A stretch of 64,000 nt of DNA from the IMG/VR virus record IMGVR_UViG_2671180724_000008. One strand, given 5' to 3'. Below, in pieces: positions 32,901 through 57,930 of the stretch (position 1 is its first letter; every line of letters starts with the position of its first letter). The stretch comes from a virus. Lineage: Duplodnaviria > Heunggongvirae > Uroviricota > Caudoviricetes. The notes beneath the pieces were generated by a model that worked only from the letters and a program-made list of their open reading frames with translations, was not told the DNA's origin and did not search any database. The position numbers and the translations under genes are program-made.

Positions 32901-35900
32901 TTGGACATGGAACAGTTCAAGAAGAAAAAATTACCGCTTCTTATTGCCGGTGCTGGTGGCAAGAAAAGTAAAAGCTCCAGCCGTACACCGGTTGAAGCTG
33001 ATGATACTGTCAATTCTCGTGCTATGGCAGCCATCCTCGACCTTCTTGGCGAGGGGGTTATCGGTGGCCTGGTAAATGGCGCAAAGTCGATCTTCATCGA
33101 CGATTTACCGATCTTGAATGAAGATGGCTCTTCCAACTTCAGCGGTATTACATGGGATTTTCGTGACGGCTCACAAGACCAGACGCCAATGGCTGGTTTT
33201 GATTTTGTTGAAACGCCTAAGTCCGTAAATATTCAGCTTAAAAAAACACACGACGTTACGGTTTCAATCGATAACGATGAAGCTGATCGCGTTCGTGTCA
33301 TCATGAAATTCCCCTCTTTACGTAGCGTTGATAAAAGCTCTGGCGATACAAATGGCACTACGGTGAAGTACAAATTCCAGATCGCCAACGGAGACGCAAC
33401 ATTTTCTGATGTAGTGGCAGAAGGTGAGAAAAGCGTTGATATCACGCTAACGGCAAAGAAAACCGGCGTGTATTACCGTAGCTATGAGCTGAAACTGCCT
33501 AAGCCTGGTCGTGCATACAAGGTTAGGGTAATTCGTCTTACAGATGATAACAGTAGCCAGTACCTCTACAACGACACATGGGTTGATTCCATAGGTGAGA
33601 TTGTAGATACACCCATGAACTACCCTAATTCTGCACTTGTTGGCTTAAAGGTCAATTCAGAGCAGTTTGGTAGCACAATGCCTTCCCGTTCGTATTTGGT
33701 GCGCGGTATCAAAATTCGAGTACCGTCAAACTACAACGAATACACCAATACTTATGTCGGCGTATGGGACGGTACTTTTAAGCTGTTGTCTTCTTCAAAC
33801 CCTGCGTGGATTCTCTACGATTTGCTTACCAATACTCGGTATGGTCTTGGGCAATTTGTGTCGGAATCCATGATTGACCTCGGCCAGCTCTACCAGATTG
33901 GTCGATATTGTGACGAAGAGGTCGATGATGGCTTTGGGGGTAAAGAGAAACGCTTTGCAATCAATACGCAGATCACTAGTCGACAAGACGCATACCGATT
34001 AATTCAGGATATTGCCGGTGCATTCCGCGGCATGGTGTTTTGGGCTGGTGGCATGGTTAACATCATGCAGGATAGCCCATCAGATCCGGTAATGATGTTT
34101 ACCAACTCCAACGTCAAAGATGGGCTGTTTACCTATAAAGGTTCTGCGCGTAAAGATCGCCCATCCGTTGCGCTCGTAACCTACAACAACAAGGAGGACG
34201 GTTATAAGCAAAACATCGAGTACGTTGAAGATCAGGACGCAATGCGCCGTTATGGTGAGCGTAAAACAGAAGTCGTAGCATTTGGATGTACAAGCCGAGG
34301 CCAGGCTCACCGAGTTGGTTTGTGGCTTTTGTATACCGCCAGAATGGAGTCGGATGTAATTACATTTACTGCCGGCTTAGACGCCTCATTTCTGATGCCC
34401 GGTGAAACCGTTCTGATTCAGAACAAATATCGTGCAGGTAAACGTAACTCCGGTCGAATTGTGGAGTTTACCAAAAACAGCATCACTCTCGATGCGCCTG
34501 TGTCGTTAGCTAAAAGCGGCAGCTTTATTCGGATATTGAATCAGGAAGGCAAAATCGTTGAACGCGATGTTCTTGAAACTGGCGAAAACATAACAAAGGT
34601 TACGTTTTCAAAAGCCCTGTCGTCAGCGGAAACGCCTGTTTTGAACGGTGTCTGGACAATTACAGAACCAGATCTCGAACCTATGCGCGTTCGCATCGTT
34701 AACATCGCGCAGGGGGAAACGCCGGGTAGCTTTGACATCACCGCTGTTGAGAACAATCCGTCTAAATATGAGGCAATCGACAATGGTGCAACGCTTATCC
34801 CGCAGAATACGACGGTATTGGACCCGACTTACTCCAAGCCATCTAATTTGCAAATCACTGAAGGGACTTATCTCTCAAGCCCGGGAAACCTGTCAGTAAA
34901 ACTGACTGCAACATGGGAAGGGAAATCTCCAGAGTATTGGATCAGTTGGCGACGTTCTGATGAAAACAATGTATCGAACTGGCAATCGGCGCGTGTAACC
35001 GAAGAGCAATACGAAATCGTTAATGTCGCGGAGAATGGACGCTACGACTTCCAACTGTATGCGGTTTCATTCAACGGTAAAAAAACAGAAATTATCAGTA
35101 CCGTTTATCAGGTGCTGGGCACAATGACACCGCCGGATGCACCAACGTCATTAACGGCCGTTGGAGACTATCGTAATGTGATACTAAATTGGGTTAATCC
35201 AGATTCGGTAGACCTTGATCACATTAATGTTTACGCATCCCAGACCAACAATCTGGATACGGCGAAACTGATCGCGGAGTCTGCAAGCACCACCTTTACA
35301 CATGCTGGTCTTGGGGATAGTGAAACGTGGTATTACTGGGTTCGAGCATCGAACAAGCGCGGCATGTTAAGTCCTCCGAACTCAAACTTGGGTACAGAGG
35401 CGACAACTCGCGATGTACTGTCGTTCCTGGAAGGTAAGATTACATCGTCTGAGCTTGGTCAGGCTCTGCTTGAGGACATCCACAGCAAAGCCTCTCAAGA
35501 AGCAGTTGACGAGTTAAATGAGCATATCAACCAGAGCGTCGAATCTTTGGAGGGGGCGGTAAACGACGTTAAGGAAGATATAGCTGAATTAGATAAGCAG
35601 TTCAGCGATAACCTCGCGGATTTTGAAATAAAATTCAACGAGCGTAGCGATGCTTTGGAGAACGCACAAACCGAGCTTAAAGGTGAGGTTTCGGCAACGA
35701 TCGACAAGGTCAATGAAGCGTTTGAAAAAATTGGTGCTACTGATGCTGCAATTGTTGAAATCGAAAACACCGTATCTGAACACGATAAAGCTCTCGCTAA
35801 TACAGTCGAGGCAATAAAGGCTGCAAGAGATGAAGCAGCAGCTCTTATTGCTAAGGAAAGCGAGGCTCGTGTTGAAGGCGATGCTGCAAACGCTAAACAA

Positions 35901-37631
35901 CTGGAAGTGTTGCAGTCAACGGTAGAGGAAAGCTCCGCTGCCGTTGAAGAAATGAAAAAGACGGTTGCAGAGGTCGATCGTGCCAGTGCAGAACTGACTA
36001 CGAACATTGAGGCGTTAGCCAAAACAAATATTGACCTGGCTCTTCGTCAAGATGAAGACCAGCGCAAGCAGATGGTCAATAACGCGAAGATCGCAACAAC
36101 ACAGAAAACCTTTGCTGATGATATGTCTGCAATGGCCACGAAGGTTGAGGAAATTCGCGTAGAAATTGGCGAAGACATTAAGGCCAGTATTCTGGAAGAG
36201 TCCACCGCTCGTGCCGATGGCGATGAAGCGTTGGCAAAGCGTGTCACTCAGCTGCAATCTAAGTTTGAAGGAGATATCAGCGCGGCGATTAGTACAGAGC
36301 AGGAGGCTCGTACATCTGCCGATGAAGCTCTGACGACACAGATCACTCAGCTTGAGTCGAAAGTAAGCAACGATATCGTCGCAGCTATTAAGGAAGAGCA
36401 AGAAGCCCGAGCAACGGAAGATTCGGCTCTGGCAAGCCAGATCACCCAACTTCAGGCAAAGGTTGATGATGATATTTCTGCTGCAATACGTAGTGAGCAG
36501 GAGGCTCGAGCAAGCGGGGACTCTGCATTAGCCAAACAAATAAACCAGCTTCAGTCAAAGGTTGACGGTGATATATCCGCTGCCATCACTCAGGAGCAGG
36601 AGGCCAGGGCAAGTGCTGACCAGGCGCTCTCACGAGAAATTAACAGCCTGCGAGCACAGACCGGAACTGATATTGCCGCAGCGGTTGCTGTAGAGACAAA
36701 GGCAAGGACTGATGCCGATAGTGCATTGTCCACTCAGATTACGTCTCTTACAGCAAAAGCTAATGATCTCGAGGCATCTCTTGCCAGAGAAACAACGGCT
36801 CGTGCAGATGGTGATACCGCTTTAACAAAAGAGGTTTCAAGTTTAAAAGCACAGACTGCGAAAGATATTAGTGCGGCCGTTGCAGTTGAAACGCAGGCTC
36901 GAACTGATGCTGACTCGGCGTTGTCATCTCAGATCACCAAGCTGACCTCTCAATACAAAGAGGATATTAAAGCGGCTGTAGCAACCGAAACGAAAACGCG
37001 TACAGAGCAAGATGCGGCACTGGCGACTCAAATCACAAACTTAGAGTCTCAAACAGCAGCCAACATTTCTGCGGCGGTCACAACTGAAACGACAGCGAGA
37101 ACGCAGGCAGATAATGCTCTAAGTGGGCGAATCGATACTCTGAAAGCAGAGGTGGATGGAAATACCGCGACAATTCAACAGCAGGCAACGGCCATTGCTG
37201 ATACCAACAAAAAAGTCTCAACCGCGTGGACGTTGAAAATGGAGACTTCAACGAGCGGAGGGCAGAAGTATGTTGCCGGTATTGCGCTTGGTATCGACAC
37301 CACCGGTCTTTCTCAGTTTTTGGTGCAGGCGGACAGATTTGGTTTGGTCAACTCTGTTAACGGGAAGATCACCACGCCATTTGTTATCGAAAACAGTATC
37401 GCCTATATGAATGGTGCGTATATCAAGGATGGCACAATCACCAATGCAAAAGTAGGCGATCTGCAATCTACCAATTTTGTTAGCGGTAGATCTGGATGGC
37501 GGTTCGGCAAAAATGGAACGCTTGAGATCAACGGTAATAGCGGAGGTAATGGGCGACTGGTCATAAATGGTCAGCGGATTGACGTTTATGACGATAACAA
37601 CGTCCTACGAGTAAGAATTGGCCTTCTGTAA
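32901..37631 (+). CDS. Tail tip/host specificity protein (lambda gpJ-like) with C-terminal tandem coiled-coil repeats
   Basis: 1576 aa; after a ~850-aa N-terminal region, about 12 tandem copies of a ~31-aa unit (DISAAI..EQEAR..AD.AL..QIT.L..KV) span ~35500-37150. Confidence 0.85.
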   Translation: MDMEQFKKKKLPLLIAGAGGKKSKSSSRTPVEADDTVNSRAMAAILDLLGEGVIGGLVNGAKSIFIDDLPILNEDGSSNFSGITWDFRDGSQDQTPMAGFDFVETPKSVNIQLKKTHDVTVSIDNDEADRVRVIMKFPSLRSVDKSSGDTNGTTVKYKFQIANGDATFSDVVAEGEKSVDITLTAKKTGVYYRSYELKLPKPGRAYKVRVIRLTDDNSSQYLYNDTWVDSIGEIVDTPMNYPNSALVGLKVNSEQFGSTMPSRSYLVRGIKIRVPSNYNEYTNTYVGVWDGTFKLLSSSNPAWILYDLLTNTRYGLGQFVSESMIDLGQLYQIGRYCDEEVDDGFGGKEKRFAINTQITSRQDAYRLIQDIAGAFRGMVFWAGGMVNIMQDSPSDPVMMFTNSNVKDGLFTYKGSARKDRPSVALVTYNNKEDGYKQNIEYVEDQDAMRRYGERKTEVVAFGCTSRGQAHRVGLWLLYTARMESDVITFTAGLDASFLMPGETVLIQNKYRAGKRNSGRIVEFTKNSITLDAPVSLAKSGSFIRILNQEGKIVERDVLETGENITKVTFSKALSSAETPVLNGVWTITEPDLEPMRVRIVNIAQGETPGSFDITAVENNPSKYEAIDNGATLIPQNTTVLDPTYSKPSNLQITEGTYLSSPGNLSVKLTATWEGKSPEYWISWRRSDENNVSNWQSARVTEEQYEIVNVAENGRYDFQLYAVSFNGKKTEIISTVYQVLGTMTPPDAPTSLTAVGDYRNVILNWVNPDSVDLDHINVYASQTNNLDTAKLIAESASTTFTHAGLGDSETWYYWVRASNKRGMLSPPNSNLGTEATTRDVLSFLEGKITSSELGQALLEDIHSKASQEAVDELNEHINQSVESLEGAVNDVKEDIAELDKQFSDNLADFEIKFNERSDALENAQTELKGEVSATIDKVNEAFEKIGATDAAIVEIENTVSEHDKALANTVEAIKAARDEAAALIAKESEARVEGDAANAKQLEVLQSTVEESSAAVEEMKKTVAEVDRASAELTTNIEALAKTNIDLALRQDEDQRKQMVNNAKIATTQKTFADDMSAMATKVEEIRVEIGEDIKASILEESTARADGDEALAKRVTQLQSKFEGDISAAISTEQEARTSADEALTTQITQLESKVSNDIVAAIKEEQEARATEDSALASQITQLQAKVDDDISAAIRSEQEARASGDSALAKQINQLQSKVDGDISAAITQEQEARASADQALSREINSLRAQTGTDIAAAVAVETKARTDADSALSTQITSLTAKANDLEASLARETTARADGDTALTKEVSSLKAQTAKDISAAVAVETQARTDADSALSSQITKLTSQYKEDIKAAVATETKTRTEQDAALATQITNLESQTAANISAAVTTETTARTQADNALSGRIDTLKAEVDGNTATIQQQATAIADTNKKVSTAWTLKMETSTSGGQKYVAGIALGIDTTGLSQFLVQADRFGLVNSVNGKITTPFVIENSIAYMNGAYIKDGTITNAKVGDLQSTNFVSGRSGWRFGKNGTLEINGNSGGNGRLVINGQRIDVYDDNNVLRVRIGLL

Positions 37632-37723: not shown

Positions 37724-40700
37724 ATGTGGTACAGGGAAGGTACTATCACATTTACACAGGGTAGCAATACTCTGGTTGGGGTTGGGACAGCCTGGAACGT
37801 AACAGCTAATGGTGTGTTGCCGGGGATGATCGTCATTGGCCCCGACAATAAGCTGTATGAGATCAAGCGCGTAACAAGCGATACGAATATTGTTCTCTCA
37901 GAACCTTATACCGGCGAAACTCAGTCTGAAGTTCCGTGCCGAATCATTACGACCTATGAAGGCGACTTAACACAGTTTAGCGCGCGCTTTACTGCGCTAA
38001 TGTCGCGTATGTCGGCTGATTCCAAGTCCATGCGCAGTTGGTTGACTGCTCTTGATGAGGTGACAATCGAGCGTGAAGACGGTACAGAAGTTACCGTTAA
38101 GCCGCTGATGCAGATCGTCAACGAGCACAACGAAAACGTTGAGTGGTATAAAAATAACACCGACGCGATTGACGCTGCTGGCGACAAAGCTCGTGAGGCG
38201 GCGGCCAGTGCTGCCGCAGCAGCAGAAAGCGCCAATACCGCTGGAGAAAAAGCCTCTCAAGCGTCTCAAAGTGCATCCGCTGCGGAATCCTCACAAAGTG
38301 CTGCAAGTGCGAGTGCAACTGCTGCGAAAAAATCTGAAACGAACGCAGAATCAGCATATGTCGCGGCAGCAGAATCAGCATCTGTAGCGTCGACTAAAGC
38401 ATCGGAGGCGGCCACATCTGCGTCCAGTGCCTCTGCATCTAAGGATGCGGCTAAAGCATCAGAGGCTAACGCTTCATCGAGTGCAAACGCGGCGGCATCA
38501 TTTGCAACAGAAGCTGAAAATTCGTCTAAGGCAGCAAAAGCGTCAGAGACAAACGCAAAAGCATCTGAAACGGCAGCCGGGCAGAGTGCATCGTCTGCAA
38601 ACAGTTCGAAATCTGCGGCAGAAGCGTCAGCAAGCGCAGCCTCAGCAAGTGCGGATAGTGCTTCATCAAGTGCAACTGCGGCAGGAAAATCTGCGGAAAG
38701 CGCGTCGTCATCAGCGGCAACAGCTACCGCAAAAGCGACTGAGGCGACGAATCAGGCTACAGCCGCTAAAAATTCAGCATCAGCAGCGAAAACCTCTGAA
38801 ACAAATGCAAAGTCTTCAGAAGACAATGCCGCTTCCTCTAAGACTGCGGCTGCTGAATCTGCAAGTTCTGCGTCAGCATCAGCCACCTCGGCGTCTGCTT
38901 CAAAGGATGAGGCGACCAAGCAGGCATCAGCTGCGAAGGGTAGTGCTTCAACGGCATCCACGAAAGCAACAGAGGCGGCAGGCAGTGCGACGGCTGCATC
39001 TCAGAGCAAAACTGCTGCTGAATCCGCTGCGACTCGTGCAGAAGCTGCCGCTGATCGTGCTGAAGAGATTGCCGGTGCAGTTGCGATGGAAGACGCAAGC
39101 CTTACAACTAAAGGTGTTGTGAAACTTAGCAGTGCTGTCGATAGCACCAGCGAATCACTGGCTGCAACTCCAAAGGCAGTTAAAGCTGCGAATGACAATG
39201 CGAATAGCCGATTGGCGAAGAACCAGAATGGTGCTGATATACCAGGTAAGGATACCTTCACGAAAAATATTGGCGCTGGGCGAGCATTTGGAGGCTCTGT
39301 AAGTACAACAGCAGGAAACTGGACTACGGCACAGTTTGTCGAATGGTTGGACTCTCAAGGGGCGTTTAATCATCCGTACTGGATGTGTAAAGGCTCATGG
39401 TCGTATGGCAACAACAAAATCATTACTGATACTGGTTGTGGCAATATTCATCTTGCCGGGGCAGTAATTGAGGTAATGGGGATAAAGTCAGCAATGACGA
39501 TCCGCGTTACCACACCAACAACATCTAGCGGTGGTGGTACTGCTAACGCTCAATTTACTTATATTAACCACGGGACAGATTATTCTCCAGGCTGGCGACG
39601 AGACTACAATACAAAATACAAACCTACGCCATCGGATATAGGTGCATTATCAACATCAGGAGGGACGGTTTCAGGTCCGTTGTCTGTTACTGGTGGATTA
39701 ACTGGTTCATTGAATGGCAATGCGAGTACCGCCACGAAATTGCAGACTGCAAGAACTATCGGCGGCGTGGCCTTCGATGGATCTGCGAACATAAATTTGC
39801 CTGGTGTAAACACGGCAGGTAATCAGAGCACTACTGGTAATGCCGCAACCGCTACAAAACTTCAAACGGCAAGAACGATTGGTGGCGTTTCATTTAACGG
39901 AACTGCCAACATCGACTTGCCCGGAGTTAACAAAGCTGGCAACCAAAGCACCACAGGTAATGCTGCTACAGCTACTAAATTGCAGACAGCAAGAACCATC
40001 GGTGGTGTAAGCTTCGATGGCACTGCGAATATTAATTTGCCTGGTGTTAATGCTGCCGGTAATCAGAACACTACCGGTAACGCGGCCACAGCGACCAAGT
40101 TGCAAACTGCTAGAACTATTAACGGGGTGTCGTTTAACGGCTCTGCGAATATTTCAATACCAACAATTACGTCCAGAGGACGCGTTACTGCGCTCACCGG
40201 TACAACACAAGGTGCTGCGACTGGATTGCAGATGTACGAGGCATATAACAATGGCTACCCTTCGACTTACGGGAATGTGCTTCATCTTAAGGGCGCAACG
40301 GCCGTTGGTGAAGGTGAGTTGTTCATAGGTTGGAGCGGTACAAGTGGTGCTCATGCGCCTGTACATGTACGTTCGCGACGAGATACGGATACATCCAGTT
40401 GGTCTGAATGGGCGCAAGTTTATACGTCCAAAGACTCTATTCCAGGTGTCAATGCCACCGGTAATCAGAACACTACTGGCAACGCAGCCTCTGCAACGAA
40501 GTTGCAGACAGCCAGAACAATTGGAGGTGTGTCGTTTAATGGTACCGCCAATATTAACTTGCCGGGTGTTAATATAGCGGGTAATCAGAATACGACTGGT
40601 AACGCAGCTTCAGCCACGAAGTTACAAACGGCTCGTACCATCGGTGGTGTTAGTTTTAACGGTACAGCCAATATTAACTTACCTGGTGTGAATACGACCG

Positions 40701-41251
40701 GTAATCAGAACACTACTGGTAATGCTGCAACCGCCACAAAATTGCAGACAGCAAGGAAAATTGCTGGTGTTGCGTTTGATGGCTCTGCCGATATAACTTT
40801 GACTGCGGCTAACCTTAATGCTTATACGAAAACAGAGGTAACAAACCTTCTAAGTTCCTATGTGAAGAGCAGTGCTCTTCCAAGCATGACTGTGCGAACT
40901 TCCTCTGTATCAGGTGGGGATATGGGCATGAGTTTGTCTGCGTTCATTAGCCACCTTAAATCAAATGGAGCGTTTAGCAAAAGTTATTGGATTGGCTTTG
41001 GCGATGCTATGGGATTCAATGCTGGTAGTATCAACAATATAACGGGATTTGGTGCTGTAGAATTAGCAGAATCTATAATCGAAGTTTTTAATCTACCTAA
41101 CGGTGATTATACAATTCGTTTAACAACATCACATAAAGCTGACTACGGTGGAGTTACAAACGCAATCCTCGTTTATCACTACCGTAGTAATAGAAGTCCG
41201 TCAGGTCAATGGCTGAAATTTGCCGGTACTGTTGGGGCAACAAGCAACTGA
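37724..41251 (+). CDS. Tail fibre protein
   Basis: 1175 aa; Ala/Ser-rich low-complexity segment (~38150-39100), then about 8 tandem ~35-aa repeats GNQ(N/S)TTGNAA(T/S)ATKLQTARTIGGV(S/A)F(N/D)G(T/S)ANI.LPGVN, distinct C-terminal domain. Confidence 0.85.
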   Translation: MWYREGTITFTQGSNTLVGVGTAWNVTANGVLPGMIVIGPDNKLYEIKRVTSDTNIVLSEPYTGETQSEVPCRIITTYEGDLTQFSARFTALMSRMSADSKSMRSWLTALDEVTIEREDGTEVTVKPLMQIVNEHNENVEWYKNNTDAIDAAGDKAREAAASAAAAAESANTAGEKASQASQSASAAESSQSAASASATAAKKSETNAESAYVAAAESASVASTKASEAATSASSASASKDAAKASEANASSSANAAASFATEAENSSKAAKASETNAKASETAAGQSASSANSSKSAAEASASAASASADSASSSATAAGKSAESASSSAATATAKATEATNQATAAKNSASAAKTSETNAKSSEDNAASSKTAAAESASSASASATSASASKDEATKQASAAKGSASTASTKATEAAGSATAASQSKTAAESAATRAEAAADRAEEIAGAVAMEDASLTTKGVVKLSSAVDSTSESLAATPKAVKAANDNANSRLAKNQNGADIPGKDTFTKNIGAGRAFGGSVSTTAGNWTTAQFVEWLDSQGAFNHPYWMCKGSWSYGNNKIITDTGCGNIHLAGAVIEVMGIKSAMTIRVTTPTTSSGGGTANAQFTYINHGTDYSPGWRRDYNTKYKPTPSDIGALSTSGGTVSGPLSVTGGLTGSLNGNASTATKLQTARTIGGVAFDGSANINLPGVNTAGNQSTTGNAATATKLQTARTIGGVSFNGTANIDLPGVNKAGNQSTTGNAATATKLQTARTIGGVSFDGTANINLPGVNAAGNQNTTGNAATATKLQTARTINGVSFNGSANISIPTITSRGRVTALTGTTQGAATGLQMYEAYNNGYPSTYGNVLHLKGATAVGEGELFIGWSGTSGAHAPVHVRSRRDTDTSSWSEWAQVYTSKDSIPGVNATGNQNTTGNAASATKLQTARTIGGVSFNGTANINLPGVNIAGNQNTTGNAASATKLQTARTIGGVSFNGTANINLPGVNTTGNQNTTGNAATATKLQTARKIAGVAFDGSADITLTAANLNAYTKTEVTNLLSSYVKSSALPSMTVRTSSVSGGDMGMSLSAFISHLKSNGAFSKSYWIGFGDAMGFNAGSINNITGFGAVELAESIIEVFNLPNGDYTIRLTTSHKADYGGVTNAILVYHYRSNRSPSGQWLKFAGTVGATSN

Positions 41252-41341
41252 TTTAGACATTATTTCTAATAAGGATAATTTATAAGATGGTTGTGAGGTC
41301 GATAAATATGGCCTCACAACCGCAGTTATAAGGATATATTT

Positions 41342-41596
41342 ATGAGCTATGGTGCACAGGTTTGGTCGCCATCAAGACAGGAGATGGTCGATGCGTTGGC
41401 CCCTGTTTATTACCTCGATTATTTTACTCCCTCTGGTTCTGGAAGTAGAACATATGATGTTGAGGCGGGATTGGGAATCGACTATTACATAATGGACGTA
41501 ACCAATGGGAAATACACAAGTCTTACGGTTTCTGGAAATACCATTTCATGGTCTGGAGCTAGTGGTAATTTAAACATATTGGTTTTTCAAAAATAA
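41342..41596 (+). CDS. Hypothetical protein (post-fibre, low GC)
   Basis: 84-aa ORF; AT-rich. Confidence 0.45.
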   Translation: MSYGAQVWSPSRQEMVDALAPVYYLDYFTPSGSGSRTYDVEAGLGIDYYIMDVTNGKYTSLTVSGNTISWSGASGNLNILVFQK

Positions 41597-42204
41597 TGTA
41601 CGGAAGCAAGATATATCGATCTGACGGGAAGGTCTGGATGTCTCCTTCTTTGTCTCCTATCGTTTTTCAGAGAAAGCAGGTTGTTTCTTTATCCGGCGGG
41701 ACAGAGTTTAACACCCAAATATCTCCAGATCGTTCACCGATGATTTTTGTTGCCTATTCGAAAGCTGTTTCATTAATAGCCAACAGAATAGTGCGTAACA
41801 ACCAGGTGATTTACAGTTTCGGAGGTCAGGGTAGCGACTCTAGTGCCACGATATACGTATTTTCGAAAGGTATAGCCAAAAAAGAAACTTGGGGCATGAG
41901 TTTTTTCAATGCACAAGGGGAGGAAATCTATAATACGGCAAATATCCCACTTTCATTTACCTTTCTTAATAATACGGAGTGGAACAGCTCTGGAGGGCAT
42001 GTTTTTGATTACCCACCAGCGATAATCCCAACGTATGCGAATGTGTTCGCTGTTCCAGTACCGGGCGGAGCCATGACAATGGTTTATGGATATGCGGCAT
42101 ATGGAAATACTGTTAGCTCGATATTCGTAAACCAACTTAATGGCGGCCATAGTTTTAGCGTAAATGGCAGAGTACCGGTAATAAATAGAAATCTGTATAA
42201 CTGA
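41596..42204 (+). CDS. Hypothetical protein (post-fibre, low GC)
   Basis: 202-aa ORF; ATGT overlap with upstream gene. Confidence 0.5.
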   Translation: MYGSKIYRSDGKVWMSPSLSPIVFQRKQVVSLSGGTEFNTQISPDRSPMIFVAYSKAVSLIANRIVRNNQVIYSFGGQGSDSSATIYVFSKGIAKKETWGMSFFNAQGEEIYNTANIPLSFTFLNNTEWNSSGGHVFDYPPAIIPTYANVFAVPVPGGAMTMVYGYAAYGNTVSSIFVNQLNGGHSFSVNGRVPVINRNLYN

Positions 42205-42211
42205 TGAGTAA

Positions 42212-42445
42212 ATGATGAAAAGATTATTTCTAACAATAGCTGTTGTTCTCTCTCTTACTGGCTGCCAGAAATTGCCGACACCTATATGTTATGGTGAGGC
42301 TATCATTGGTGGACAGGAGACTGTCATACCTATATATGCTGTTAAAAAAGTGAACGACTATACCTTATACAAAGCGGGTAGCATCTATAACTGGCGATGG
42401 GTTGGAGTAGGTGCTTTCTCATCAGTCCGTTGCAATGCTGAATGA
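42212..42445 (+). CDS. Small lipoprotein (candidate superinfection-exclusion protein)
   Basis: Signal peptide with lipobox LTGC; location immediately downstream of receptor-binding genes. Confidence 0.55.
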   Translation: MMKRLFLTIAVVLSLTGCQKLPTPICYGEAIIGGQETVIPIYAVKKVNDYTLYKAGSIYNWRWVGVGAFSSVRCNAE

Positions 42446-42514: not shown

Positions 42515-42850
42515 ATGGAGGAAAACATGTCGAACGAGATGGCGGGCGTTACAACAGAGCAAGTTGAGCGTATTGCCGCGATCGTTGCTCGGGAGGTTGT
42601 TGGCAAATTAGGTAAAGAGCTACGTGAAGAAATTGGCCAGGAGGTCAATGATCAGCTGAAAACCTACTTTGGTGATATGACCCCGGCGCAACATAGTATT
42701 CAACACTCCAATCTGGACAAACTCCTTAACCGGTTAGATTCCATCTCAAGTGGGTTCTTTGGCGGCATTGTTTCTAAAATAACGTCGTTCATTATTACCG
42801 CACTGCTTTTGGGGTTAGCCGCGTATGGCGTAAAAAATGGACTGCAATAA
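42515..42850 (+). CDS. Tail-anchored membrane protein (possible holin or lysis regulator)
   Basis: Soluble N-terminal part and single C-terminal transmembrane helix; precedes the endolysin-like gene. Confidence 0.35.
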   Translation: MEENMSNEMAGVTTEQVERIAAIVAREVVGKLGKELREEIGQEVNDQLKTYFGDMTPAQHSIQHSNLDKLLNRLDSISSGFFGGIVSKITSFIITALLLGLAAYGVKNGLQ

Positions 42851-42863
42851 CAGGAGATCAAGG

Positions 42864-43556
42864 ATGAAGACTCCGAGAGGCATTCGTAATAATAACCCCG
42901 GTAATCTTGATAAAGGATCACCGTGGCAAGGTCTGGTTGTGAATCCAGACGAACCGCGCTTTTGCACGTTTAAAGACCCTGTTTGGGGGATTCGTGCGCT
43001 GGCGGTGACTCTAATTACCTACCACGACAAACGTCGCGCAAAAGACGGCTCAAGTATCGATACCATTCGTGAAGTTATTGAACGTTGGGCACCGCCGAAT
43101 GAAAACAACACTGACGCCTACATTAATGAGGTGTCTAAAGCCGTTGGTGTAACCGCAGACATGATCATCGATCTGCATGATTACGACATCCTTCGACCTT
43201 TGGTTGAGGCAATCATTCGCCACGAGAATGGTCGAGGTCCACTAAAAACGCTGAATACCTGGTATGCGGCAGAAGTTATTGAGGAAGGTCTGCGTCGAGC
43301 TGGCGTCGTTAAGCCGGTGAAAACCGTGAAGGCTGTTCCTGTAACTAAAGAAACAGCAGGCGCAACTGTCACAGCAGGTATTGGTCTGGCGCAGCTTGCC
43401 GATGTTATGCCGCAGGTTTCCGCTGCTATGGATAAGGCACAAGGTCATATCTCTAGCGGGGATACAGTACGCATCATCTTCGGTATTGCCACTATTGTTG
43501 TGGCAGGATTCATTGCCTGGTCGCAGGTAAGAAAACACCAGAAAGGGATGGTCTAA
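42864..43556 (+). CDS. Putative endolysin/peptidoglycan hydrolase with C-terminal hydrophobic segment
   Basis: N-terminal RNNNPGN-type motif (recalled from phage muramidase-like proteins, unverified); position immediately upstream of spanins; caggag RBS. Confidence 0.5.
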   Translation: MKTPRGIRNNNPGNLDKGSPWQGLVVNPDEPRFCTFKDPVWGIRALAVTLITYHDKRRAKDGSSIDTIREVIERWAPPNENNTDAYINEVSKAVGVTADMIIDLHDYDILRPLVEAIIRHENGRGPLKTLNTWYAAEVIEEGLRRAGVVKPVKTVKAVPVTKETAGATVTAGIGLAQLADVMPQVSAAMDKAQGHISSGDTVRIIFGIATIVVAGFIAWSQVRKHQKGMV

Positions 43557-43557
43557 T

Positions 43558-43809
43558 ATGCTAGGCAGCCTGATGACAAAGCTAAAAGTTGCTTTGATTA
43601 CGCTGGCTGCCGTTCTTTTCGTTCTGGTCGGCGCTTACACGATGGGCGGAAATGCGGCGCGACGAGCAATGGAAGAGAAGGCAAAACAGGAAGACAGGAA
43701 ACGACTTCAAAGCACATTGGACGTCAAAAATGAAACACTTGATGAGTTACGGAGCAAGGATGCTTCTACTGTTCATCATGAGTTGCACAATAAGTGGTTG
43801 CGTGATTAA
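43558..43809 (+). CDS. i-spanin (Rz-like)
   Basis: N-terminal transmembrane helix followed by charged coiled-coil periplasmic domain. Confidence 0.6.
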   Translation: MLGSLMTKLKVALITLAAVLFVLVGAYTMGGNAARRAMEEKAKQEDRKRLQSTLDVKNETLDELRSKDASTVHHELHNKWLRD

Positions 43810-43960
43810 GCCTCAACCCGCTGGTGTGCTTTTCTGCGATGCGGCTACACCGCTATACATCAGCCGTGATGATCTCATGACCGAAGAGACTGAAAGAGAG
43901 GTGCTTTTTCACAATATGATAGGGGAGCGATTGTGTGGATGGGGCAGAAAAGTACCCTAA
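43730..43960 (+). CDS. o-spanin (Rz1-like lipoprotein), overlapping Rz in the +1 frame
   Basis: Signal peptide with lipobox ISGC; gene starts inside the Rz-like gene in a different frame. Confidence 0.55.
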   Translation: MKHLMSYGARMLLLFIMSCTISGCVIKPQPAGVLFCDAATPLYISRDDLMTEETEREVLFHNMIGERLCGWGRKVP

Positions 43961-56170: not shown

Positions 56171-56257
56171 CGGAGAGTAGGGAGCATGGTGCTCAAGCGG
56201 TCTTGAAAACCGTCCCATTGTGCAAACGATGATGGTTCGATTCCATTACTCTCCGCC
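56171..56257 (+). tRNA. tRNA-Ser (anticodon TGA) with long variable arm
   Basis: Acceptor GGAGAGT/ACTCTCC, anticodon loop CTTGAAA, T-loop GGTTCGATTCC, encoded CCA. Confidence 0.8.
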
Positions 56258-56260
56258 AGA

Positions 56261-56336
56261 CACAGCGTTGAGCGGTTTGGCCTTTTAATCAACTCGATTA
56301 AGACTCCGCTAACATAAACCAGACCGCTCAACGCTG
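56261..56336. repeat. 19-bp-arm inverted repeat immediately 3' of tRNA-Ser (acagcgttgagcggtttgg / ccagaccgctcaacgctgt)
   Basis: Read directly; one mismatch, 38-nt loop. Confidence 0.6.
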
Positions 56337-56414
56337 TGATAGACAATTACGGCAGACGTTCTTAACCATAGCTTGCTAACATCCTAGCAACACTTTTTTT
56401 CAGCGCAAAATTCA

Positions 56415-56436
56415 AAGGGGCTTCGGCCCCTTTTTT
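56415..56436. terminator. Bidirectional rho-independent terminator
   Basis: ggggc ttcg gcccc hairpin with A-run upstream and tttttt downstream; sits between the tRNA region and the end of the minus-strand gene. Confidence 0.7.
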
Positions 56437-56453
56437 GAAAGCAATGGGCAAGT

Positions 56454-57788
56454 TCATGCCAAATTATCCAGATTTCTTTTCTTTTTTTCAATTATATTTC
56501 TCGCGCCAGAAAAAATTTTACTCAAAATAATTGATTTGCTTGCTCTATTATTAAGATGTAACAACGCGCTATAAAATACATAGTTATCTATTTTACTATT
56601 TAAAGTATTCCCAAGCTTCCCGTTATATGTGCTATTAATAGTATTAAAATATACATGTTCAGGACCTATATTACAAATACCCCTATCAACTCGCTTTAAA
56701 TAATGTTTAACTAAAGAAATAGCATCTTCCTTATCATTAATAACATAAAGTCCTGAGCGTTTACCTAGCTTGCTGTCCGAGAATAATTTATAACCAACAA
56801 GTTCATTTAACGTATTATCCACTTTTGTCAACTCTTTGTTGGCAATCTCCAAATAATACTCAATCTCTTTCTCCATATTACTTATTAAAGAGTTAAATTC
56901 TGCTCGTAACAAATCACCACCAGGTGATTTATAACTCCATAAAATTGAATTGGTAATACGTACTACGTCAGATACTTCTGGTTTCTCTGAATAGTTTTTG
57001 TATCTAGTGCAAATAATGCTGTGCTTTATATATTCTCTAACTAATGATCGATAATCCCTTTCGAAAAGGTTTTTGACATCTAGTCTTCCATTGCTTGTTG
57101 TTATTAAGGTGGTGTTTAAAACTGGGTCGCCTTCAAAAAAATTATATTTATTTAGTAATCGTTTTAGCTTGTGTGAATTATGTGATGTTTCGCCATAATA
57201 ATTTATCCCAAAAATAGCAATTATTAGCATAACATCAGGAGTGATGAAATGTCGTAATTGCTCGGCATAAACTTTTTTATCTTCGATTTTCGAAGATGGA
57301 GAGTAAAAACCTTTGTCTATATATTCTAATATTGAAACAATATTACTAACATAACGTATAAAAACTTGATTCATTACAACGGAATCATAAACCTGATGCA
57401 AATAATCTACTCTCAAGTTGTTTTTTATTTTTTCCCCTGTACTAGATGATAACTCTTCTTTTACCTGCCCAAGTAGCTTTTCGTGGTGCTCCAGCAATGT
57501 TTTAAACCATTGTTCAAATGATGATTTTCTTGCCTCAGTTAATGAATCTGATGTTATCTGGACAGCTTTCATAGCTGCTTTCGCACTTTTCTTTGCTTCA
57601 TAAGCGTTCCATGCTGAAGCACAAAAAGCTGCCGCCGTGATGCAACTGGTAAAAATAGAAATCCTATCTGCAACATTCAAGCTCCAGAACCAATCAGACG
57701 ATGAAATCAAAACCACAGATATTACGGGAACAATGAAAATCAAAACAGGCATGTATGTACTCGCTCTAATAGTTATTAGTCGAGGCAA
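56454..57788 (-). CDS. Low-GC 444-aa membrane-anchored protein of unknown function (candidate abortive-infection or defence cargo)
   Basis: Two N-terminal transmembrane segments then a large Lys/Asn/Tyr/Ile-rich soluble domain; strongly AT-rich codon usage unlike the rest of the element; own promoter and terminator. Confidence 0.6.
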   Translation of the reverse strand: MPRLITIRASTYMPVLIFIVPVISVVLISSSDWFWSLNVADRISIFTSCITAAAFCASAWNAYEAKKSAKAAMKAVQITSDSLTEARKSSFEQWFKTLLEHHEKLLGQVKEELSSSTGEKIKNNLRVDYLHQVYDSVVMNQVFIRYVSNIVSILEYIDKGFYSPSSKIEDKKVYAEQLRHFITPDVMLIIAIFGINYYGETSHNSHKLKRLLNKYNFFEGDPVLNTTLITTSNGRLDVKNLFERDYRSLVREYIKHSIICTRYKNYSEKPEVSDVVRITNSILWSYKSPGGDLLRAEFNSLISNMEKEIEYYLEIANKELTKVDNTLNELVGYKLFSDSKLGKRSGLYVINDKEDAISLVKHYLKRVDRGICNIGPEHVYFNTINSTYNGKLGNTLNSKIDNYVFYSALLHLNNRASKSIILSKIFSGARNIIEKKKRNLDNLA

Positions 57789-57845
57789 ATATTATATAAA
57801 TCTCGTTATGATTTACAGACATGTATACGTATTGCTAATTATCAC

Positions 57846-57883
57846 CAACAAATGATAGGTGTGTACATATCTATCATTTGTTG
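57846..57883. promoter_or_regulatory. Perfect 13-bp inverted repeat caacaaatgatag / ctatcatttgttg in the divergent promoter region
   Basis: Read directly; lies between the start of the minus-strand 444-aa gene and the plus-strand glutaredoxin gene. Confidence 0.55.
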
Positions 57884-57930
57884 TAAAATTAATGTATACG
57901 CTATGAATACACTAATAATATGAGGTAATC

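Follow-up and report, generated by a model that had tools for sequence, protein, structure and literature searches.

T5 Llp, the lytic conversion lipoprotein (PDB 7QJF, and 8A60 with FhuA), is a close known system for the locus described here. It binds the periplasmic face of the receptor FhuA, and a similar action is expected of the phage exclusion lipoprotein Cor, which is about 20% identical to it (PMC9586334). The cor cassette accompanies FhuA use in T1, phi80, N15, HK022 and ES18 (PMC13164509, section 2.5, citing Wietzorrek 2006), and the cassette of N15, HK022, HK75, mEp167-type phages, phi80 and T1 is made up of the same three protein families as the genes discussed below (NF047972/PHROG 1119, PHROG 557 and PHROG 425). 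The genes found downstream of gpJ have been treated as true receptor-binding proteins (RBPs) that have exclusion proteins to match (BASEL; PMC8594841; preprint 10.64898/2026.04.02.716166), a treatment backed by AF3 models with the receptor (preprint 10.64898/2026.04.02.716166). The authors describing KanT1 took another view: going by the annotation of both as membrane proteins, they guessed at a helper role in exclusion for the two (PMC13164509, section 2.5).

The window, meaning the whole stretch of 64,000 nucleotides that was analysed, is a portion of an E. coli SSU5-like phage-plasmid, and its + strand carries a lambda-type tail module made up of the tape measure, L/K/I homologues, J and a side tail fibre. 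The three genes that follow the side tail fibre gene are read here, with a probability of roughly 75%, as the SSU5-lineage version of the cor cassette, serving host recognition and superinfection exclusion, likely via FhuA. The relevant features are listed below.

32901-37631, + strand: J, 1576 aa, matching NF049904 (lambda_TipJ)
37017-37631, + strand: C-terminal ~200 residues of J, the presumed docking site of p84 and p202
37724-41251, + strand: side tail fibre, 1175 aa, a 3.5-kb gene between J and the trio
41342-41596, + strand: p84, 84 aa, N15 gp22 family, PHROG 557
41596-42204, + strand: p202, 202 aa, N15 gp23 family, PHROG 425
41596-41886 and 41887-42201, + strand: the two halves of p202, each starting with [YW]G..[IVF][WY]...G
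42212-42445, + strand: cor, 77 aa, predicted Cor-family outer-membrane lipoprotein
42212-42265, + strand: lipoprotein signal peptide (residues 1-17) and lipidated Cys18, lipobox LTGC, as read from the sequence
42263-42442, + strand: mature Cor domain, modelled as a small five-stranded beta protein, with Cys26, Cys74 and the motif YKAG..YNWRWVG
42515-42850, downstream of cor: holin
42837-43556, downstream of the holin: endolysin
43558-43809 and about 43730-43960: Rz-like i-spanin and an embedded +1-frame lipoprotein (lipobox ISGC), the Rz1 o-spanin

An earlier note on this DNA had placed three same-strand open reading frames after the tail fibre gene, and their coordinates stand exactly as given there. 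All three have strong family matches and are therefore genuine genes rather than chance reading frames. The stop codon of p84 and the start of p202 overlap by 1 nt (...AAATAATG), the ATG of p84 is preceded by an SD-like AAGGA 6 nt away, and the start of p202 at 41596 is supported because the N-terminus it yields is conserved in N15, tonn and JenP2. The note had also described the genes as low in GC. The trio is indeed below the window mean (41.7% against 46.2%, SD 3.5; 9th percentile among 1.1-kb windows), but the difference is modest and the final 600 nt of the tail fibre gene, at 42.0%, are as low. There is no second copy of the trio inside the 64-kb window. Downstream, the endolysin gene is followed by Rz with its embedded Rz1 and then by ParA; Rz1, a small lipoprotein as well, is encoded 1.3 kb from cor and is distinct from Cor. 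The lowest-GC island of the window lies elsewhere, at 56200-57900 (about 31% GC), where a 444-aa reading frame (56454-57788, - strand) has a borderline match to the Pfam family putAbiC, a putative abortive-infection protein (21.7 bits, cutoff 22). The gap from the tail fibre stop to the start of p84 contains a very stable hairpin (41288-41322) with a 14-bp stem and no U-tract (-23.7 kcal/mol over 41280-41335, z -6.3). The SSU5-like element Cyrano has a hairpin at the equivalent spot, in which the loop differs and a stem change is compensated. This hairpin may be a transcript-end or processing signal.

Judged by its sequence, the 77-aa lipoprotein is a clear member of the Cor family. It matches the NCBIfam equivalog NF047972 ('phage exclusion lipoprotein Cor') at 80.7 bits, against a cutoff of 31, over residues 2-75 of 77, and PHROG 1119 with an E value of 2.3e-30. 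Searching with Cor by tblastn returned 193 phage records, each with at least 80% of the protein covered, at identities of 59% to the 'Cor-like' protein of SSU5, 58% to Stx phages, 47% to HK75 and mEp-type lambdoid phages, 42% to gene 24 of N15, and about 30-34% to Dhillonvirus and T1-like phages. Identity to the Cor proteins of the FhuA phages N15 and HK75 is 42-49%. The earlier note had argued for receptor-blocking exclusion from gene position and protein type, and the Cor family match (NF047972, PHROG 1119) supports that reading by supplying the homology it lacked. The feature is of a known kind and already annotated publicly, Cor cassettes having been known since N15, phi80 and T1; RefSeq/PGAP names the identical DNA 'cor: phage exclusion lipoprotein Cor'. 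A 100% match lies on a 110-kb plasmid of E. coli S87, and the trio is found in 68 of 5426 complete E. coli genomes, plasmid-borne in every case. None of the three proteins is covered by a Pfam model, the only matches being a weak one to LPAM_1 for Cor and a sub-threshold one to CAS_C for p202, and PADLOC returned zero family matches for all three.

The 77-aa product with its LTGC lipobox, also claimed in the note, is present in the sequence. Its N-terminus (MMKRLFLTIAVVLSLTG, then CQ) is made up of a positive n-region, a hydrophobic core and the lipobox L-T-G-C, and the signal region has a weak PF08139 match (17.3 bits). The +2 residue is Gln and not the inner-membrane retention residue Asp, which fits outer-membrane sorting. 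Cys18, Cys26 and Cys74 are invariant in an alignment of 9 Cor-like sequences, in which the YNWRWVG motif is shared, and a Cys26-Cys74 disulfide is probable. The AF2 model of Cor, a five-stranded beta protein, has a pLDDT of 76 overall and 80-89 in the mature part. Foldseek found no significant match to this model in the PDB; in BFVD, exclusion proteins and lipoproteins from T1-like and T5-like phages rank highest. As modelled, the Cor fold is Llp-like. A homology search for Llp with the single Cor sequence gave no match, and a Cor profile reaches Llp (8a60_B) with an E value of 0.017, chiefly over the signal peptide. The alignments used for structure were shallow because searches of a collection of 5.8 billion proteins gave only 4-6 close relatives for each protein, and a fused p84, p202 and Cor alignment query was swamped by nonspecific word matches.

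In the preferred reading, p84 and p202 would be late proteins of cytoplasmic origin that are built into the virion where the central fibre J, a trimer, has its tip. They would recognise a receptor protein of the outer membrane, for which the ferrichrome transporter FhuA is the likeliest candidate. Cor would be exported, lipidated at Cys18 and Lol-sorted to the inner leaflet of the outer membrane. There, like T5 Llp on FhuA, it would engage this receptor from the periplasmic side and leave the receptor surface loops in a form that phages cannot use. The outcome would be a block to secondary infection, with progeny not wasted on the debris of lysed cells.

p84 matches PHROG 557 ('outer membrane protein') with an E value of 1.7e-24 and is 69% identical to SSU5_023 and 28-38% identical to N15 gp22, tonn gp66 and JenP2 gp22. 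p202 matches PHROG 425 ('membrane associated protein') over its full length (E 4.5e-49), with identities of 75% to SSU5_024 read from an upstream ATG, 29% to tonn gp67 and 23% to N15 gp23. Neither protein has a signal peptide or a transmembrane segment, and the maximum 19-residue hydropathy (KD19) is 0.54 for p84 and 1.24 for p202, compared with 2.02 for the holin. The last ~50 residues of p202 do not align with proteins of the Cyrano or JenP2 type, whereas the N-termini are conserved. No structural homologue of p202 was found with its family profile in the PDB, and its AF2 model, with a pLDDT of 43, was unusable. Internal repetition is evident in the pair. In profile-profile comparison, p84 and the N-terminal half of p202 are paralogous (hhalign 90.5%, P 1.3e-6, 74 columns), and the ~30-residue motif [YW]G..[IVF][WY]...G recurs at the start of the C-terminal half (hhalign P 2.4e-5); the two scores are 37.6 and 32.0, against 18 or less in reversed and column-shuffled controls. 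The paralogy of p84 and the motif in the second half of p202 together make three copies of one module in the pair.

We propose that p84 and p202 form a tail-tip receptor-binding complex, in which p84 would be a small subunit or adaptor and p202 the RBP, with a virion location deduced from the evidence that follows. This reading is drawn from the lack of a signal peptide or transmembrane helix, from the occurrence of the pair without Cor, and from its placement at one of two loci. Taken with the conserved N-termini and allele-specific C-termini, the evidence fits a required virion function better than an exclusion accessory. The presumed partner is J, whose C-terminal 200 aa are 32% identical to the C-terminus of N15 gp21 (E 1.7e-18) and whose last 30 residues differ by at most 1 residue in SSU5, Cyrano and PhiR41_1. 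J is ~500 residues longer than N15 gp21, and between the lambda-TipJ core and the C-terminal tip has a long insert (residues ~980-1370) of tandem coiled-coil-like repeats (...DISAAI..EQEAR.S.D.AL...I.QL..K...). From three module copies and a trimeric fibre tip one may speculate that the modules form a pseudo-threefold cap. A fuller version of this idea is tentative and rather doubtful: the three modules would cap the trimeric tip of J asymmetrically, with pseudo-threefold symmetry, and turn a single binding face to a monomeric receptor, and the pair would be exchanged as one of two alleles at two loci, one of them Cor-linked, so that either/or replacement would switch the receptor and bring gain or loss of self-exclusion.

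The placement of the pair in SSU5-like phage-plasmids follows an either/or pattern. Homologous pairs without Cor occur in the Nonagvirus JenP2 and in the SSU5-like Cyrano and PhiR41_1. Cyrano (pLF82) has a J 97.7% identical to that of the window and the same C-terminal end of the fibre, and the trio is absent; a divergent pair, CYRAN_88/89, lies about 55 kb from its fibre-holin junction. This second locus is flanked by a 570-bp ORF and a DUF4942 gene, and the pair found there is divergent and without Cor. PhiR41_1, whose host is K-12 MG1655 per its GenBank record, is arranged as Cyrano is; plasmid p009_B, with a trio 99.7% identical to that of the window, has an empty second locus.

L006:5001-5899: second-locus pair of Cyrano, CYRAN_88/89
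L013:17283-18184: second-locus pair of PhiR41_1
L009:12281-12421: empty second locus of p009_B

In PLSDB, the trio is found in 73 records, the Cyrano-type pair at the second locus in 119, and a concatenated query of the two in 186, so that only 6 records hold both; there are about 184 E. coli-type SSU5-like backbones, counted by holin and endolysin at 90% identity or more. At the fibre-holin junction of Cyrano (L003:10100-10175), the sequence GTGAGTTACTAG (M-S-Y-stop) stands where p84 of the window starts ATGAGCTATGGT, and this remnant of the p84 start looks like the scar of a trio deletion. Cyrano was considered as proof that the pair is dispensable and rejected as such, a second divergent pair being present in both Cyrano and PhiR41_1; the infectivity of Cyrano virions has not been demonstrated (PMC9928086). 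Part of the either/or pattern may stem from clade ancestry rather than from selection.

FhuA is favoured as the target, with moderate confidence. The published association of the cassette with FhuA use speaks for it. Scores against NF047972 fall from the Cor of the window (80.7 bits) to that of Dhillonvirus YD-2008.s (60.7 bits) and to the Warwickvirus tonn lipoprotein (19.2 bits, below the cutoff), and it is from homology and this ranking that Cor is predicted to inactivate FhuA and exclude FhuA-dependent phages. Counting against FhuA is the closeness of p202 to Warwickvirus proteins rather than to N15 gp23, set out below. Pairs of PHROGs 425 and 557 also occur in short-tailed Stx phages, and the type phage SSU5, which carries this trio too, is reportedly LPS-core-specific. 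No paper that names the receptor of an E. coli SSU5-like phage turned up in the literature search. The same mechanism could also be directed at BtuB or another TonB-dependent transporter instead of FhuA, a reading that we hold to be unlikely. It draws on the nearest relatives of p202 in phage records, the SSU5 group aside, which are Warwickvirus proteins (29-32% identity, 100% coverage); JLBYU07 and JLBYU19, among these matches, are reported to be FhuA-independent, as are the BYU-lab Warwickvirus JLBYU01-26 in general, a set that does not include tonn (PMC10373560). Cor-like lipoproteins are also present in BtuB-using T5-like phages (PMC13164509), and lipoproteins of T5-like phages such as DT571/2 are among the BFVD fold matches. 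However, Cor lies well inside the equivalog and close to the N15 and HK75 proteins at the identities given above, the tonn lipoprotein falls short of the cutoff, and no T5-like Llp or BtuB-type match is among the matches listed in the tblastn search (193 records). A published criterion for assigning FhuA was more than 30% identity at a coverage above 99% to RBPs of proven FhuA phages (preprint 10.64898/2026.04.02.716166), and p202 reaches only 23% identity to gp23 of the FhuA phage N15. Since p202 is closest to Warwickvirus, the pair and Cor point slightly different ways. Upstream and not downstream of its pair, tonn encodes a Cor-like lipoprotein (gp65; L007:1951-2220) with an LTGC lipobox and the same three Cys, a possible exclusion protein directed at another receptor.

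Two further readings give p84 and p202 another role than the one preferred here. In one, which is improbable, they are membrane or accessory factors that aid exclusion by Cor. It is favoured by what the proteins are called in PHROG and in N15 annotation ('outer membrane protein', 'membrane associated protein'), by the conserved linkage of the pair to cor and by the assumption made in PMC13164509 (section 2.5). Against it, the proteins have no signal peptide or hydrophobic helix, JenP2, Cyrano and PhiR41_1 carry pairs without Cor, an SSU5-like plasmid has essentially a single pair, at whichever locus, and in N15 and HK75 translation of the pair is coupled to that of J. The published treatment as RBPs, with AF3 receptor models, is also against it (preprint 10.64898/2026.04.02.716166). 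The other reading makes p84 and p202 side tail fibre chaperones or adhesins, and the lipoprotein an unrelated moron or a lysis-cassette o-spanin. Its appeal lies in the position of the trio, which directly follows the side tail fibre gene and precedes the holin. The earlier note had suggested a search of the two upstream proteins for fibre-assembly or chaperone folds. That search turned up the gp22 and gp23 families instead, with no match to tail fibre assembly families in Pfam, PHROG or NCBIfam. Moreover, Cyrano has the same fibre C-terminus without the trio, the pair precedes the side fibre gene in N15 and HK75, a separate Rz with embedded Rz1 follows the endolysin, and the lipoprotein matches Cor and not a spanin, all of which leaves this reading very far from probable.

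Expression of cor appears to be organised differently from that of the classic cassettes. The cor genes of N15 and HK75 (regions L001:5857-6425 and L010:1361-1773) lie ~110 nt past gene 23. They are organised as morons, with a promoter-like site where gene 23 ends and an intrinsic terminator directly behind cor. In the window, by contrast, 7 nt separate the p202 stop from the cor start (42204-42212), and consensus scans called no promoter-like or terminator-like site flanking cor, although promoter scans of this kind return consensus matches at chance frequency and are weak evidence. By these scans, the autonomous-moron organisation, with its own promoter and terminator, is absent at the cor of the window. 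The short gap and the lack of such sites mean that cor is probably made with the late genes and not as an autonomous prophage moron. This suggests that cor is co-expressed with the late tail and lysis genes, in the manner of T5 lytic conversion, rather than constitutively from the plasmid prophage, the timing being deduced from gene arrangement.

The finding mainly confirms existing annotation, as PGAP already names the gene cor. If the cassette reading is right, about 1% of complete E. coli genomes (68/5426) are predicted to encode a factor able to make cells refractory to FhuA-dependent phages, and the predicted effect of Cor would extend to uptake of ferrichrome, albomycin and colicin M, at any rate after the late genes have been switched on. 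It would also name the likely terminal receptor for a widespread group of phage-plasmids, whose host range matters as relatives carry resistance genes. Leads on how locus-encoded RBPs attach to J-type tail tips come from the mutually exclusive alternative loci of the pair, from its repeat of three modules and from cor being fused into the late operon.

Compared with the known cassettes, the trio keeps the gene order of N15 genes 22-23-24 and HK75 genes 21-22-23, that is, a small protein, a ~200-aa protein and a ~77-aa lipoprotein. The Cor of N15 and HK75 type has the three Cys positions and an FNW(R/Q)WV motif in common with that of the window, and the classic cassette likewise lies in the host-recognition region of a siphovirus tail module. 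There are also differences. The pair abuts J in N15 and HK75, whereas the trio of the window follows the side tail fibre gene and not gpJ, and the pair itself, 23-28% identical to N15 gp22/gp23, is closer to the tonn/JenP2 type. The host element, a ~110-kb phage-plasmid, is unlike the classic cor-cassette phages. In the short-tailed Stx phage phi367, a Cor 58% identical to that of the window lies beside a tail fibre adhesin (L005:5986-6213) and a separate gp22/gp23-like pair lies next to lom (L005:9454-10355), so parts of the cassette travel separately.

The orthologous trio is that of SSU5, SSU5_023-025 (SSU5_025 being 'Cor-like'), which occupies the same place between the tail fibre genes and the holin at identities of 69%, 75% and 59%, and differs in having an extra adhesin gene, SSU5_022, before the trio. 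SSU5_024 (L002:8381-8989) is annotated as 188 aa from an internal Met, 14 codons too short; the conserved N-terminus MYGSKI... places the true start 14 codons further upstream, where it overlaps the SSU5_023 stop just as p202 overlaps p84 in the window. Beyond FhuA, the LptD module of the Rtp/Bas18 type has the same design, an RBP and a cognate periplasmic exclusion lipoprotein encoded at one locus. Its lipoprotein binds LptD at the periplasmic face, and the RBP families, four in number and each specific to a receptor, are described there as unrelated (preprint 10.64898/2026.04.02.716166).
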